From Minisyncoccota bacterium (GTDB lineage: Bacteria > Patescibacteriota > Minisyncoccia > UBA6257 > XYB1-36-10), in assembly GCA_041651415.1 (NCBI GenBank), contig JBAZJH010000003.1:15309-79308 (forward strand): a stretch of DNA of 64,000 nt, in the 5' to 3' direction. Positions 15,355-61,582 of the stretch are shown piece after piece (the stretch's first letter is position 1; the number at the start of each line of letters is the position of its first letter). The notes under the pieces were generated by a model, which was not told where the DNA came from, searched no databases, and saw nothing but the letters and a program-made list of their open reading frames with translations. The position numbers and the translations under genes were made by a program.

Positions 15355-15552
15355 AGGGTTTTAATTATAGCAGAAAATTAATTTTAACTAAAAATCGGCA
15401 AGAAGCCGATTTTTAATTTTTATAATCAAATTTAATGTTTTCTCTAAAGTAGGTTTGGATTCTCGCCTGCGCGGGAATGACCCAGAGAAAACTAGCGTTT
15501 TATCAAAAAAGATAAGGAAGCTCCGACCAAAGTCGGAGCACAGTGGAGAAAA

Positions 15553-15966
15553 CTAGCGTTTTCTCCACTGTGGAGCGCGGCGGGCTTTTTTCAAACCAAA
15601 TTTCTTTCTCTCCACCATTCTCGGGTCGCGTTTCAAAAAACCGGCAGCTTTCAAATTTTTTCGAAGTTCCGGGTCCTTTAAAATAAGAGCGCGGGAAAGA
15701 CCATGGCGAACAGCTTCCGCTTGAGAAGAAGGACCGCCTCCTTTAACCAAAACACTCATTCCCAATTTTCCGAAGAGTCCGGTTAATTTAAGCGGGTCGG
15801 AAACAATTTTTTGGAACTTCTTTAAAGGAAAATATTTTTCTAAAGAGCGGCTGTTGACAGAAATATCGGAACCGGAAAAAATTCTGACTCGAGCGACAGA
15901 GGTTTTTCGACGGCCAACGCCGGCAAAATATTTTCCGGAAACTTTGGTTTTTTTAACTTCTTTTTC
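15553..15966 (-). CDS. rpsI: 30S ribosomal protein S9
   Basis: GVGRRKTSVARV and C-terminal ARRAPQWRKR; stop codon embedded in a perfect 15-bp hairpin. Confidence 0.9.
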   Translation of the reverse strand, partial: EKEVKKTKVSGKYFAGVGRRKTSVARVRIFSGSDISVNSRSLEKYFPLKKFQKIVSDPLKLTGLFGKLGMSVLVKGGGPSSQAEAVRHGLSRALILKDPELRKNLKAAGFLKRDPRMVERKKFGLKKARRAPQWRKR

Positions 15967-37478: not shown

Positions 37479-37501
37479 TTTTTAGCTCTGGCTAAAAAAT
37501 G

Positions 37502-37574
37502 TGGACCGTACCGGATTTGAACCGGTGACCTCCACATTGCAAATGTGGCGCTCTACCAACTAAGCTAACGGCCC
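37502..37574 (-). tRNA. tRNA-Ala(TGC)
   Basis: GGGCCGTTAGCTTAGTTGGTAGAGCGCCACATTTGCAATGTGGAGGTCACCGGTTCAAATCCGGTACGGTCCA; G3:U70 identity pair, anticodon TGC; CCA not encoded. Confidence 0.85.
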
Positions 37575-38234: not shown

Positions 38235-38342
38235 ATTTTATTATCCTCTTAATCCGCCAGTTGGCGGAGGAGCACAATTTTTTAGCTTTAGTAATAAATC
38301 TTTTGAAGCTCCGATATAATCGGAGCCCCGATAAAATCGGGG

Positions 38343-38414
38343 TGGGTGTGGGAGGGATCGGACCTCCGGCCTCTGTCTTATCAGGACAGCGTTCTACCAC
38401 TGAACTACACACCC
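38343..38414 (-). tRNA. tRNA-Ile(GAT)
   Basis: GGGTGTGTAGTTCAGTGGTAGAACGCTGTCCTGATAAGACAGAGGCCGGAGGTCCGATCCCTCCCACACCCA; anticodon GAT. Confidence 0.85.
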
Positions 38415-38686
38415 CTTTTGAATAGCCAAGGAAAATTATTATCAGTTATAACCTTATTGATAATATCTTTCCTTTTGTATTTTTTCAATTTATATTCAAA
38501 ACCTCTCGCTTGTCTTAACGATTCACACTCAAGAAAAGATTCTAAAACAAGAGGCCTGATATTCTTTGTTGACAGCACTCTTCCGGAAATATGGTCTTTA
38601 AATCTTCTTTCAATATTGTCAGTGCTTCCTATATAAAATCTTTTATTTTTTAAACTTCTTAATATATAAACACCGCTTTTCTTCAT
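38405..38686 (-). CDS. GIY-YIG domain nuclease (small, 93 aa)
   Basis: GVYILRSLKNKRFYIGSTDNIERRFKDH = GIY-YIG motif with catalytic Arg/Glu context; stop codon TAG lies inside tRNA-Ile acceptor/D-arm (GGGTGTGTAG). Confidence 0.7.
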   Translation of the reverse strand: MKKSGVYILRSLKNKRFYIGSTDNIERRFKDHISGRVLSTKNIRPLVLESFLECESLRQARGFEYKLKKYKRKDIINKVITDNNFPWLFKRGV

Positions 38687-38695
38687 AAATTGAAA

Positions 38696-38773
38696 GCGTT
38701 CTACTCCGATCTCTTCCGATAAATCGGAATCATCGGAGTCCGACTTAGGGTCGGACCACTGAACTACACACCC
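38696..38773 (-). repeat. direct repeat of tRNA-Ile 5' half (acceptor + D-arm) with 50-nt palindromic insert
   Basis: GGGTGTGTAGTTCAGTGG[50 nt]TAGAACGC matches intact tRNA-Ile 5' 26 nt; together with downstream tRNA-Ile flanks the GIY-YIG ORF. Confidence 0.55.
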
Positions 38774-38813
38774 TTAAAAACAACTAAAATATCATAAACC
38801 AACAACCCGGGAA

Positions 38814-39041
38814 TTATTTCAAAACTTCTTCCGCGCCGTTCAAATTGAATTGAGAAGAAGTGGAAGCGGACTTGATGTTTAAATTGAAAGCCGAGTTAAA
38901 ACTGTCCACCAGAAAACTGATACTACTAACCAAATACCAAAGAACAATGATTAACATTAAAACGCCAAGAAGGAGGAAAGTCAATTCTCGTTTGTCTTTA
39001 AAAATAGCGAGGAGATTATTTTTTAATTCTTCTTTATTCAT
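38814..39041 (-). CDS. small single-TM protein, hypothetical
   Basis: 75 aa with TM FLLLGVLMLIIVLWYLV. Confidence 0.3.
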   Translation of the reverse strand: MNKEELKNNLLAIFKDKRELTFLLLGVLMLIIVLWYLVSSISFLVDSFNSAFNLNIKSASTSSQFNLNGAEEVLK

Positions 39042-46193: not shown

Positions 46194-46307
46194 AGATGTA
46201 AAAATATCAAATCACAAAAAACAAATTACAAATAAAGACGGATTTTGATTTTTTCGGATTTATTATCTATTATATCAAGAGCTAAGCTTTAAATAAAGAA
46301 GGAAGCC

Positions 46308-46375
46308 CGAGTGGCGGAACCCCGACCTTAAAAAGTCGGGGCGAGATTGCTAAAGTCATAGCAATAGACATAAAG
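46308..46375 (+). other. degenerate tRNA-Leu-like fragment (acceptor/D 5' part plus TAA anticodon stem-loop, no T-arm)
   Basis: GCCCGAGTGGCGGAAC identical to 5' 16 nt of adjacent tRNA-Leu; CCCCGACCTTAAAAAGTCGGGG anticodon-like hairpin; no GTTCGA T-loop. Confidence 0.3.
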
Positions 46376-46403
46376 CAAAGCAATTTAAAAATTTCAAAAA
46401 TAT

Positions 46404-46485
46404 GCCCGAGTGGCGGAACTGGTATACGCGCACGACTCAAAATCGTGTCTCGTAAGAGGTGTGGGTTCGACTCCCACCTCGGGCA
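46404..46485 (+). tRNA. tRNA-Leu(CAA)
   Basis: GCCCGAGTGGCGGAACTGGTATACGCGCACGACTCAAAATCGTGTCTCGTAAGAGGTGTGGGTTCGACTCCCACCTCGGGCA; long variable arm, anticodon CAA. Confidence 0.85.
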
Positions 46486-46522
46486 CCGAAATTAGTTTAT
46501 TAGTTTAAAAGTTAAATATTCA

Positions 46523-59335: not shown

Positions 59336-60078
59336 CATAAATTTTTTTCATTTATTACTAAATGGATCGGACTATACCATCACCCCGACCAAACTGTCGG
59401 GGGACTGACGTATTAGCATTCACTTGAACGCTCTGTTTTTAAAAACAAGTCTCTACGGGGTCAATGCACGTTCTTTTCTTCTTTTGGAATAATTAAGTTC
59501 GCGATAGCGATTAATAATTTTAAGAAGATTTTTGAAATCGTTAGCATTTTTAATTGTCTTTTTTCGCCGGATAATTTCAAGCATAAGATTTATTTGTTTC
59601 TTTTTTAAAACCGAATAAGGTTTTATCGCCTTTAGAAATTCTTGAATATCTTCGATTTTTCCTATAACACATTCGAGAATTCCATCAGAACGAATACGGA
59701 GTTTTCCGCATCCGACAAGAGAACAAATTTCTTCAAAGCTTTTTTGACATTTTTTTGATTGGAAAAAAACAACATAAAGCGCTATCTGAAAACCGTATCG
59801 ATAAGTTCGATTCGGCTTCGCTTGCGCATAAATGCTGCCATCACCATCAAGAAAACCAGCGATATAGGACTTTTTTATTTTGGATAACGATTTTAACATA
59901 CACGACTTCCCTCGGTATTATCCTAACATATGACAGGTTGAAAATCATATGAGGACTTCACCGATATGAGTCAGTTTATTCAGTCCACATTACTGTGGCT
60001 CCGATATTTTAATCGGAGTTCTGACTTTTAAAGTCAGAAAAAGCCGCCGTTTTTTTTATTACCTCGTGTTCAATTTTG
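59336..60078 (-). mobile_element. group I intron in 23S domain V at/near the I-CreI-type site (E. coli about 2593), carrying a LAGLIDADG ORF
   Basis: About 743-nt insertion between ...GGTTCAAACCGT and CGTGAGACAGGTTGG exon sequences; ends with G; contains HE ORF. Confidence 0.8.
59453..59899 (-). CDS. LAGLIDADG homing endonuclease (intron-encoded)
   Basis: IAGFLDGDGSIYAQ LAGLIDADG motif; single-motif about 148 aa (I-CreI-like homodimer type). Confidence 0.85.
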   Translation of the reverse strand: MLKSLSKIKKSYIAGFLDGDGSIYAQAKPNRTYRYGFQIALYVVFFQSKKCQKSFEEICSLVGCGKLRIRSDGILECVIGKIEDIQEFLKAIKPYSVLKKKQINLMLEIIRRKKTIKNANDFKNLLKIINRYRELNYSKRRKERALTP

Positions 60079-60210
60079 ACGGTTTGAACCCAGCTCGCGT
60101 ACCTTTTTAATTGGCGAACAGCCAAACGCTTGGGACCTTCTCCAGCCCCGCGCTAAGATGAGCCGACATCGAGGTGCCGAACCGCGCCGTCGCTATGGAC
60201 GCTCGGGCGC

Positions 60211-60241
<31 letters not shown>

Positions 60242-61582
60242 GCCGTTGTCTCCGACCTTCCTGTAAAGGTTCGTCGGGTCACTAAGTTCTGCTTTCGCAT
60301 CTGCTCGACTTGTAAGTCTTGCAGTTAAGCCGGCTTATGCCTTTACACATTAGGCTCGATTTCCATCCGAGCCAAGCCGACCTTTAAACTCCTCCGTTAC
60401 TTTTTAGGAGGATTCCGCCCCAGAAAAACTGCCCGCCAGACACTGTTCCAATAAAGTTTACCTTTCGGACTCTTTATCGGTTAGAACTTAAATCATTAAA
60501 GGGTGGTATCTCATTTGCGGCTCCACTCTGACCGAAATCAAAGTTTCAAAGCCTGCCACCTATGCTGCGCAGCAACAATTTAAGGCCAATATCAAGCTAC
60601 AGTAAAGCTCCCGGGGTCTTTTCGTCCCGCTGCAGGTATCCCGCGTCTTCACGGGAATCGCATTTTCACCGAGCTTCTCGCTGAGACAGTTCTCCAGTCG
60701 TTACACCTTTCGTGCGCTCCGGAACTTACCCGGAAAGGAATTGCGCTACCTTAGAACGATTATAGTTATCGCTGACATTGACGAGGGCTTCGGGCAGTCA
60801 GCACGCGCTGCGCGCAAGTTATAAAGTTTATAAAGTTGAAAGTTAAAAGTATTTGTTTTTACTTTTTGAACTTTATGAACTTTTTTCTTTATAAACTGCG
60901 TGCAACGCATACCGCCACCGTTAACCTTCTCGCATCGGTCAGGTGTCACCCCCTATACATCCACTTGCGTGTTAGCAGGGAGCTGTGTTTTTGGTAAACA
61001 GTCGCCAGAGAAACTTTAGCTGCGGGTCCGATAAAATCGGACCAGGCCTTATTGCGAACTTACGGCCGCTTTTTTGCCGAGTTCCTTAGCGAGAAATCAC
61101 TCGTTCTCCTTGGGCTCCTCGCCCTATCCACCTGTGTCGGTTTCCGGTACGGATACCTATAAATTAACCCTAGAGGCTTTTCTTGGAAGGCTCTTCAGCC
61201 AAATCGCCTTAGCCAAAGCTAAAGCTTTCGCCTTATTTTGAAGTTTCCATTAAAGGAAGACGCGCGCATTTGTCGCGAGCCGCTTCTTAAATATAGCAAC
61301 GCCAAACCATTAAGGCGTTTGACCTTATTTCCTCCGTCCCCCCGTTAGAATTTATAGGCAGGGCTGGAATATTAACCAGCTACCCATCGGCTGCGGCTTT
61401 CGCCATCGCCTTAGGACCGCCTAACCCGTGGATGATTGCCAGTGCCACGGAAACCTTGAATTTTCGGAGAGCCGATTTCCCATCGGCTTTGTGGTTACTC
61501 ATGCCAGCATTCTCTCTTCCATCCGCTCCACGAGCCCTCGCGGGTCTCGCTTCGGCGCAAATGGAATGCTCTCCTACCACCA

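Follow-up and report, generated by a model that had tools for sequence, protein, structure and literature searches.

A small GIY-YIG nuclease gene joined to the 5' end of tRNA genes and preceded by hairpin-split tRNA copies: a candidate homing-type cassette of Patescibacteria

A 64,000-nucleotide (nt) stretch of a Minisyncoccota bacterium genome (contig JBAZJH010000003.1, positions 15,309 to 79,308; referred to here as the window) carries an intact tRNA-Ile(GAT) gene whose first nucleotides are also the end of a small open reading frame (ORF) for a GIY-YIG nuclease, and this ORF is itself preceded by a dead copy of the 5' part of the same tRNA, split by hairpins. The window locus is one copy of a recurrent family architecture and not a one-off. 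On a balance that tips somewhat in its favour, the architecture is read here as a widespread selfish, homing-type cassette that occupies the 5' side of tRNA genes in the chromosomes of candidate phyla radiation (CPR)/Patescibacteria, and the distribution of the cassette points to its mobility. A preliminary description of the locus had proposed a compact tRNA-targeting selfish or mobile element, or the remnant of one, and this proposal has gained support from recurrence, from patchy presence and from the occurrence of a dead fragment beside a selected ORF.

The whole cassette is read on the minus strand of the window. Its parts, and those of a second module in the window, are as follows.

38755-38773, minus strand: dead upstream copy of tRNA-Ile nt 1-19 (acceptor 5' strand, D stem and start of the D-loop)
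38738-38756, minus strand: hairpin 1, GTCCGAC-CCTAA-GTCGGAC, at tRNA position 18/19 of the dead copy
38704-38738, minus strand: hairpin 2, CTCCGAT-GAT-TCCGATTTATCGGA-AGAG-ATCGGAG, compound, with a nested hairpin inside
38695-38703, minus strand: rest of the dead D arm, TAGAACGCT, tRNA nt 19-27, from the repeat search
38687-38694, minus strand: 8-nt linker TTCAATTT ahead of the ATG
38405-38686, minus strand: GIY-YIG nuclease ORF, 93 amino acids plus TAG (Pfam PF01541)
38341-38414 (ARAGORN) or 38343-38414 (Rfam), minus strand: intact tRNA-Ile(GAT), Rfam 70.9 bits
38308-38342, minus strand: hairpin pair CCCCGATTTTATCGGGG and GCTCCGATTATATCGGAGC, directly 3' of tRNA-Ile
46305-46341, plus strand: module without an ORF, an exact copy of tRNA-Leu(CAA) nt 1-16 followed by hairpin CCCCGACCTTAAAAAGTCGGGG

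The dead copy opens with an exact 19-nt repeat (38773-38755) of the start of tRNA-Ile (38396-38414), and tRNA nt 20-27 follow as AGAACGCT at 38702-38695, after the hairpin block. When up to 3 mismatches were allowed, the tRNA 5' repeat matched at 2 places in the window and at none in 100 shuffles. Hairpins 1 and 2 together form a 52-nt block between the two dead pieces, and when the region is folded as RNA the D stem of the dead copy closes round both hairpins to give a three-way junction. The ORF ends AAA AGG GGT GTG TAG; its final 10 nt are tRNA nt 1-10 and its stop codon is tRNA nt 8-10 (U8-A9-G10). Most of this layout agrees with the preliminary description, in which the intact tRNA (found by both Rfam and ARAGORN), a 282-nt GIY-YIG ORF with its TAG embedded in the tRNA (38686-38405) and the upstream duplicate of the tRNA 5' part were all correctly recognized. 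The palindromic insert reported there is present as hairpins, although it measures 52 nt and not 50. A sensitive Rfam scan and a search for a 3' acceptor strand found no second tRNA, 3' tRNA half, or intron-type RNA or ribozyme in 38250-38900, and no Rfam family besides tRNA was matched there at E <= 1. The earlier statement that the locus is not a tRNA intron therefore holds, the downstream tRNA being complete and no ribozyme or splicing-type RNA being present in that interval, and the upstream fragment has no partner there with which it could be half of another functional tRNA. The hairpin pair at 38308-38342 possibly marks the right-hand end of the cassette or is left over from it. The module at 46305-46487 is a second one of the same kind without an ORF; its hairpin is of the type CCCCGAC...GTCGGGG, and a 62-nt spacer separates it from the intact tRNA-Leu (46404-46487).

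To place this layout in a wider setting, 80 loci encoding homologues of the protein were fetched on contigs from one-genome-per-species data. A tRNA on the same strand begins at the end of the ORF in approximately 65 of the 80: the two overlap by exactly 10 nt in 30 loci, as in the window, and the stop codon lies 1-18 nt ahead of the tRNA in about 25. The linked tRNAs represent at least 12 amino-acid types (Gly, Val, Phe, Ala, Asp, His, Asn, Thr, Pro, Arg, Ile and others). An exact upstream copy (>=12 nt) of the downstream tRNA occurs in 29/67 loci, compared with 1/61 and 0/67 in controls; these copies sit 50-130 nt before the ATG and mostly start from tRNA nt 1. In several loci the repeat starts within the ORF end, 5-14 nt ahead of tRNA nt 1. 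When hairpins are counted as well, a fragment and/or hairpins lie upstream of 78/82 GIY-linked tRNAs versus 34/188 tRNAs without the GIY-YIG gene. Tandem or second copies of the ORF are found in L016, L002 and L060, the second ORF of L016 being in tandem. The contig ends no more than about 350 nt past the cassette in approximately 11 of the 80 loci (L003, L005, L010, L014, L021, L024, L038, L043, L056, L071 and L079), and this suggests that repeated tRNA pieces together with hairpins break short-read assemblies.

The 93-residue protein matches the Pfam GIY-YIG family PF01541 over residues 4-73 (52.8 bits against a cut-off of 22.6, E = 4.9e-14). Among 21 sequences the catalytic-type residues Y7, Y18, G20, H32 and E64 are invariant, and R28 is kept in at least 90%. 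An AlphaFold2 model (predicted local distance difference test score 89.8), for which the leading Foldseek matches are all GIY-YIG domains, predicts the beta-beta-alpha-beta-alpha fold of the superfamily. A profile search of the PDB ranked two UPF0213 structures first (1zg2, 3.3e-13; 1ywl, 5.3e-9), followed by Slx1 (4.5e-6) and, more weakly, I-TevI (1.7e-3). Foldseek placed 1zg2 and two Slx1 chains first, with I-TevI 1mk0 at rank 4, before 1ywl at rank 5, and the Slx1 fold matches had TMq of 0.59-0.67. By profile and predicted fold, the nuclease belongs to the UPF0213/SLX1-like clade, nearer to these proteins than to I-TevI or UvrC. The protein is a single domain without a C-terminal DNA-binding region (TIGR01453 covers residues 3-41 only and stays below its cut-off, 37.2 vs 56.05), and for this reason it is not a classical homing enzyme of the I-TevI/Seg type, which qualifies the term homing-type nuclease of the preliminary description. 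Nor is it SLX1 proper, since both the C-terminal zinc finger and the SLX4 partner are missing.

The nearest homologues carry the names Nomurabacteria and Paceibacterota, and the family comprises 3,260 cluster representatives at 50% identity with E <= 1e-10. Carriage of the protein by phages was considered and rejected: tblastn of the window protein found no relative in 50,697 INPHARED records at E <= 1e-3, and the only full-length relative in IMG/VR is arranged differently. Assignment to a defence system or a known phage family was likewise rejected, as PADLOC and PHROGs match the N-terminal GIY-YIG motif only, the PHROG matches spanning only the N-terminal ~36 residues. The nearest relatives of the window protein, with 62-64% identity, are copies located at Gly, Val and Phe tRNAs; the identity is just 42% to the copy that sits at tRNA-Ile in L077. 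Across the family the closest protein is located at the same anticodon in 28/67 cases, and therefore cognate inheritance or homing predominates, with switches. The clade of the window protein is marked by an 'FPW' C-terminus and by GTCCGAC and CTCCGAC/T hairpins at position 18/19. One homologue, P0008, has a C-terminal extension ...GPIVKRYHASMAWMKLGFDSP that resembles a translated tRNA (GFDS = GGTTCGATTCC); judged from the peptide, it appears to be a gene call reading into the adjacent tRNA, where position 9 is not A.

The hairpins are a conserved, integral component of the cassette, and not a secondary interruption of the dead copy. Before most ORFs a first stretch of tRNA (nt 1 to ~10-19) leads into one or two hairpins, after which come the remaining D-arm sequence, a spacer of 3-10 nt and the ATG. 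Hairpins enter the dead copy cleanly at position 10/11, 15/16 or 18/19, and every tRNA nucleotide is retained; a second variant has a longer upstream copy, in which a single hairpin stands in for the anticodon stem-loop (nt 28-42). The 130 nt preceding the ORF contain 14.2 hairpins per kb, compared with 0.27 per kb in the rest of the loci, a 53-fold difference. The stem consensus is YCCGAY...RTCGGR (YCCGAC...GTCGGR before most ORFs), and both stem type and insertion point vary with protein clade; the stem type of hairpin 1 is also that of the nearest protein clade, L002-L009. Two variable stem positions outside the core are paired in 113/130 and 104/130 hairpins with compensatory changes, and the loop length ranges from 3 to 43 nt. 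Compensatory stem changes combined with variable loops indicate that the hairpin is selected in its folded, single-stranded form. As in repetitive extragenic palindromic (REP) elements and miniature inverted-repeat transposable elements (MITEs), the hairpins are short palindromic units, present several times per genome (in the window at 38704-38756, 38308-38342, 46320-41, 15520-39 and 37460-74) and differing by insertion or deletion between the window and a close relative, L201. Some are nested in the loops of other hairpins, and of 108 hairpins found elsewhere in the fetched loci, 51 have no tRNA within ~200 nt. In the loci examined, no REP-associated tyrosine transposase (RAYT) or insertion sequence (IS) transposase is linked to the hairpins, and the GIY-YIG ORF is their only recurrent neighbour. 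A role as intrinsic terminators or promoters was rejected, with 0 terminator-like sites and promoter-like sites no commoner than in shuffles.

Gain and loss of the cassette can be seen at orthologous sites. Among 80 metagenome loci sharing a 40-nt core (nt 6-45) of the window tRNA-Ile(GAT), the ORF stands in front of tRNA-Ile at a single one (L115). The neighbourhood of the window locus (topA, a divergent dprA and a pilO-like gene) is common to many tRNA-Ile loci, and at least five syntenic loci with dprA, the pilO-like gene and tRNA-Ile lack the ORF (L082, L087, L097, L105 and L110). In L004 the ORF lies between tRNA-Ile and tRNA-Val, and so precedes tRNA-Val instead. Fragment and hairpin remnants alone are left at L106, L133 and L137, and hairpin modules without an ORF occur also in L114 and L118. 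L141 and L144, which have no ORF, keep nt 1-27 as a diverged copy along with 17-28 further nt, an arrangement that resembles a footprint or internal deletion. Presence/absence polymorphism at a conserved target, as known for homing endonucleases, is thus found here, with one filled site in 80 and syntenic empty ones. The suggestion to look for uninterrupted tRNA-Ile loci in relatives was in this way borne out (the ORF is missing at 79/80 tRNA-Ile(GAT) loci), and the possibility of an ORF ubiquitous at this position can be set aside.

Short-term evolution was followed by aligning the window with L201, a ~94%-identical relative. Comparison of the ORFs shows 15 synonymous and 3 non-synonymous differences; in addition, codon 87 is changed from TGG to TAG, which gives the L201 ORF a premature stop. 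This pattern indicates that the domain is under purifying selection. In the upstream fragment 4 of 19 nt are substituted, about the synonymous rate, and the tRNA-Ile has 0 changes in 72 nt. On these substitution patterns, the upstream fragment evolves as dead DNA would, and the ORF is subject to purifying selection. The stem of hairpin 1 is the same in L201 and 4/5 of its loop bases are changed; the hairpin block of L201 is enlarged by a 50-nt tandem copy, and the hairpin pair at 38308-38342 is missing from that position, with other hairpins nearby.

Foreign and duplicated tRNAs around the cassette indicate how it is related to the resident gene. Further hairpin-split tRNA pieces lie 3' of the intact tRNA in 16/67 loci. 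In L069, L027 and L038 the 5' relic has an acceptor strand whose perfect pairing partner is a 3' remnant beyond the intact tRNA, and not the intact tRNA itself. It follows that at these loci the resident gene has been split in its D arm and now encloses the ORF and a complete foreign tRNA, each of the two junctions being marked by hairpins. The duplication around the nuclease noted in the preliminary description is accordingly real as a 5' tRNA duplicate, whereas a simple target-site duplication is not established, given the foreign tRNA at these three loci. In L026 and L035 the tRNA copies are identical, which looks like duplication in cis. Both patterns would be expected from nuclease-stimulated recombination between tRNA copies. 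In L201 (1820-2055) a tRNA-Ala(TGC) is split in the anticodon, at position 35/36, by a 163-nt insert that holds a different, complete tRNA-Ala and no ORF; it is flanked by TCCCGAT...ATCGGGA and a 17-base-pair (bp) imperfect inverted repeat. The tRNA-Ala of the window (37501-37574) is intact. The L201 insert is a recent replacement of a tRNA gene without an ORF. A comparable nesting was observed in L103, L104, L128, L124 and L130, in which tRNA-Ile nt 1-~37, ~60 nt, a complete tRNA-Ile, ~45 nt and a 3' half follow one another, so that the anticodon loop of one copy is interrupted by an insertion that holds another, complete tRNA. The ends of the L103 insert form an inverted repeat, ATAAACGG...CCGTTTAT, of a different hairpin type.

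The closest known analogue is SegB of phages T4 and T6, a free-standing GIY-YIG homing endonuclease of the tRNA gene cluster that cuts within tRNA genes at a conserved tRNA motif and homes together with neighbouring tRNA genes (PMC2330249; PMC13096335). It drives a segmental duplication, of a tRNA together with a truncated segB, that depends on the nuclease and on recombination and leaves a full tRNA and truncated copies, and across phages it is statistically linked to tRNAs of many isotypes (PMC2330249; PMC13096335). The window family is like SegB in outline, a GIY-YIG gene adjoining tRNA genes, and is not a member. SegB is phage-borne and has a C-terminal part, whereas the window protein has 93 amino acids and is chromosomal in CPR bacteria; the window ORF is fused to the 5' end of the tRNA, conserved hairpins split redundant tRNA copies, and no sequence homology links the two, as judged by tblastn against the phage records.

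Given this analogue, a mechanism can be proposed for the homing-type cassette. The nuclease, acting alone or with host recombination, would break the DNA of a tRNA gene; the probable site is the D arm, where the hairpins mark the point, or else the folded hairpins themselves, which would probably be recognized folded, as single strand. Recombinational repair from a filled copy, with tRNA sequence as homology, would copy in the ORF and often a whole replacement tRNA, in a step resembling homing or the segmental duplication of SegB. The insertion would be tolerated because the host retains a working tRNA. The displaced 5' part of the resident gene would be left as a relic in which the hairpins have destroyed the target site. 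The ORF would be transcribed from the tRNA promoter and RNase P would separate it from the tRNA; in the class with the 10-nt overlap, this cut would remove the stop codon of the ORF and thereby keep expression of the nuclease low.

Several points weigh against this reading. Near-identical ORF cassettes at different loci were not found in the one-genome-per-species data, and recent transposition of the ORF was rejected for this reason and for the single context shown by the contigs of each of two homologues, P0004 and P0010. Since these two are in one fixed context across many samples, many copies must be old and vertically inherited. The window tRNA is the same as those of empty sites over nt 6-45, so no immunity change exists there, and if the D arm is the target, the escape of the intact tRNA from cutting has no explanation. 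The lack of a DNA-binding domain means that sequence-specific homing is not obviously possible. The model leaves switching of tRNA type with a locally matching upstream fragment unaccounted for, and the repeat extension of 5-14 nt fits tandem duplication in cis or a long target-site duplication as well as homing. Nuclease activity, cleavage site and transfer are all inferred from the sequences, and the origin of the hairpins lies outside what the homing-type reading explains.

A more ambitious reading, offered tentatively, is that hairpin and minimal SLX1-like GIY-YIG nuclease constitute a new class of structure-targeted mobile element. Such an element might insert into loops of folded tRNA-gene DNA (D, anticodon and other hairpin loops) and might carry or regenerate a replacement tRNA, its ORF-less derivatives of hairpin and tRNA perhaps being mobilized in trans. 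The roles could also be reversed, with the hairpins as the primary mobile agent, MITE/REP-like sequences inserting into loops of folded stable-RNA gene DNA, the GIY-YIG protein as a trans-acting nuclease or a mere frequent neighbour, and the duplicated tRNA pieces as survivors in that only insertions into a redundant copy are viable. This is unlikely, and several observations speak for it: hairpin pairs are gained and lost between ~94%-identical genomes independently of the ORF, hairpins nest in hairpin loops, modules without an ORF exist at the window tRNA-Leu and in L114, L118, L133 and L137, the tRNA-Ala cassette of L201 is bounded by stems and lacks an ORF, and nearly half of the other hairpins (the 51/108 given above) are remote from any tRNA. 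It is opposed by stem types that follow the protein clade, by the 53-fold concentration just upstream of the ORF and by the clade-specific insertion position, all of which fit co-inheritance as one unit, and no other candidate transposase is linked.

The unit might also be a transposon working by cut-and-paste or copy-in, with a long target-site duplication of tRNA nt 1-27. Staggered cuts at about nt 1 (to -14) and about nt 26/27 (or ~58) would admit the linker and ORF, fill-in would regenerate an intact tRNA, and hairpins would enter the redundant left copy later. Copies of one clade at different tRNA types (window Ile, L005 Gly and L009 Val) have their junctions fixed at nt 1 and ~26/27, the ORF of 30 loci keeps a constant frame with respect to the tRNA, the upstream fragment matches the local tRNA even where the D arm is unusual (L037), and L141 and L144 resemble a footprint or internal deletion. 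This explanation is nevertheless improbable: it requires a second, almost universal step of hairpin insertion, it leaves the 3' remnants and the resident-versus-foreign acceptor pairing of L069, L027 and L038 unexplained, and characterized GIY-YIG enzymes give 2-nt overhangs (SegB, PMC2330249) rather than staggers of ~26 nt. There is also only a slim chance that the ORF is a domesticated host gene, a small structure-specific nuclease kept beside tRNA genes for maintenance or conversion of these genes, for their replacement or amplification against tRNA-targeting toxins or phages (the service of SegB to phage T6), or for RNA processing, with the fragments as by-products. Purifying selection on the ORF, the great size and age of the family, its fixed positions in some lineages (e.g. 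LepA-DivIC-GIY-tRNA-Gly) and the precedent of a beneficial effect in SegB of phage T6 would suit a host gene; patchy presence at orthologous tRNA loci, association with dead gene fragments and assembly breaks, the premature stop in L201, the tandem or second copies in L016, L002 and L060 and the want of a consistent partner gene would not. The last explanation is an integrase-type island scar, or a chance duplication beside an unrelated small ORF. Genes for tRNA are classic integration sites, and partial tRNA copies flank islands. In the present case the unit is only ~360 bp and holds no integrase ORF, the duplicated part of the tRNA is 5' and not 3', the repeat is not expected by chance, and the layout recurs ~65 times with the same protein family; this recurrence effectively refutes the scar or chance explanation.

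Other known systems share single features with the cassette. The UPF0213/YhbQ proteins (PDB 1zg2 and 1ywl) give the best profile and fold matches and are likewise single domains, of ~90-107 amino acids; no report of tRNA-gene linkage or of a hairpin partner for them was found in the literature searched. SLX1 cuts branched and stem-loop DNA. Such an activity fits a hairpin-linked nuclease, but SLX1 has a C-terminal zinc finger and the SLX4 partner, neither of which is present here. In fungal mitochondria, free-standing GIY-YIG or LAGLIDADG genes insert and bring a replacement gene end (e.g. Allomyces atp6). There too the nuclease gene travels with a duplicate of its target, the host gene remains functional and the displaced piece becomes a pseudogene; the targets, however, are the 3' ends of protein-coding genes in an organelle, and no hairpin module is involved. 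The rRNA genes of CPR bacteria contain GIY-YIG-encoding insertions that belong to neither the group I nor the group II introns; they were considered sparse and without obvious homing (PMC11270868). These share the organisms, the nuclease superfamily and a stable-RNA gene target without an intron ribozyme; they lie inside rRNA genes, however, and the tRNA-linked family and its hairpins were not described (PMC11270868). REP elements, bacterial interspersed mosaic elements and MITEs resemble the hairpins in being short and multi-copy, in nested insertion and in presence/absence between close relatives, whereas the window hairpins lack a RAYT or IS transposase, are tied to tRNA fragments and the GIY-YIG gene, and keep the stem base CCGAY/RTCGG. 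The arrangement is not mentioned in a recent survey of Patescibacteria tRNA introns, and no full-text description of tRNA-linked small GIY-YIG genes with hairpin-split tRNA fragments was found in a search that left most subscription journals uncovered. The cassette is apparently undescribed before.

Genomes of CPR bacteria are tiny, and their tRNA genes are regarded as mostly single-copy. If the homing-type reading is true, it would explain horizontal replacement of tRNA genes, dead tRNA fragments in CPR genomes and the assembly breaks there, and it would extend to bacterial chromosomes the finding from SegB that a phage nuclease drives tRNA-gene duplication. It would also give the large, uncharacterized UPF0213-type GIY-YIG family a concrete setting, that of a nuclease on hairpin or junction DNA at tRNA genes. 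If the structure-targeted class exists, its thousands of copies would be a driving force in the horizontal replacement of tRNA genes among CPR bacteria. For annotation, tRNA copies that are split by a hairpin or have their anticodon arm replaced, and ORFs that end inside tRNAs, are easily mis-called.

Several further hairpins and palindromes in the window lie outside the cassette. At 15480-15580 on the plus strand, an intergenic hairpin GCTCCGACCAAAGTCGGAGC abuts a terminator-like hairpin with a 14-bp stem, and a partial copy of the centre of the latter, GAGAAAACTAGCGTTTT, lies ~40 nt upstream; the order of partial 5' copy, CCGAC hairpin and intact structure is thereby repeated at a stem-loop that is not a tRNA. 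A palindrome of another type, ATCCGCCA-N-TGGCGGAT (38236-38262, minus strand), is situated 22 nt upstream of tRNA-Val and occurs also just upstream of a dead tRNA-Asn fragment in L032. In the 23S rRNA gene, hairpins at 61025 and 61470 were considered as element insertions and rejected, since they align to native rRNA helices. The same gene has an intervening sequence at ~59340-60090 (minus strand) with a LAGLIDADG ORF (motif IAGFLDGDGS): the Rfam 23S match stops at 60008, and 23S-like sequence is found again from ~59340. This ORF is flanked by hairpins of the types seen in the cassettes, CTCCGAT...ATCGGAG (59999-60018) and CCCCGAC...GTCGGGG (59383-59402), which may be intron helices or the same element as the cassette hairpins.

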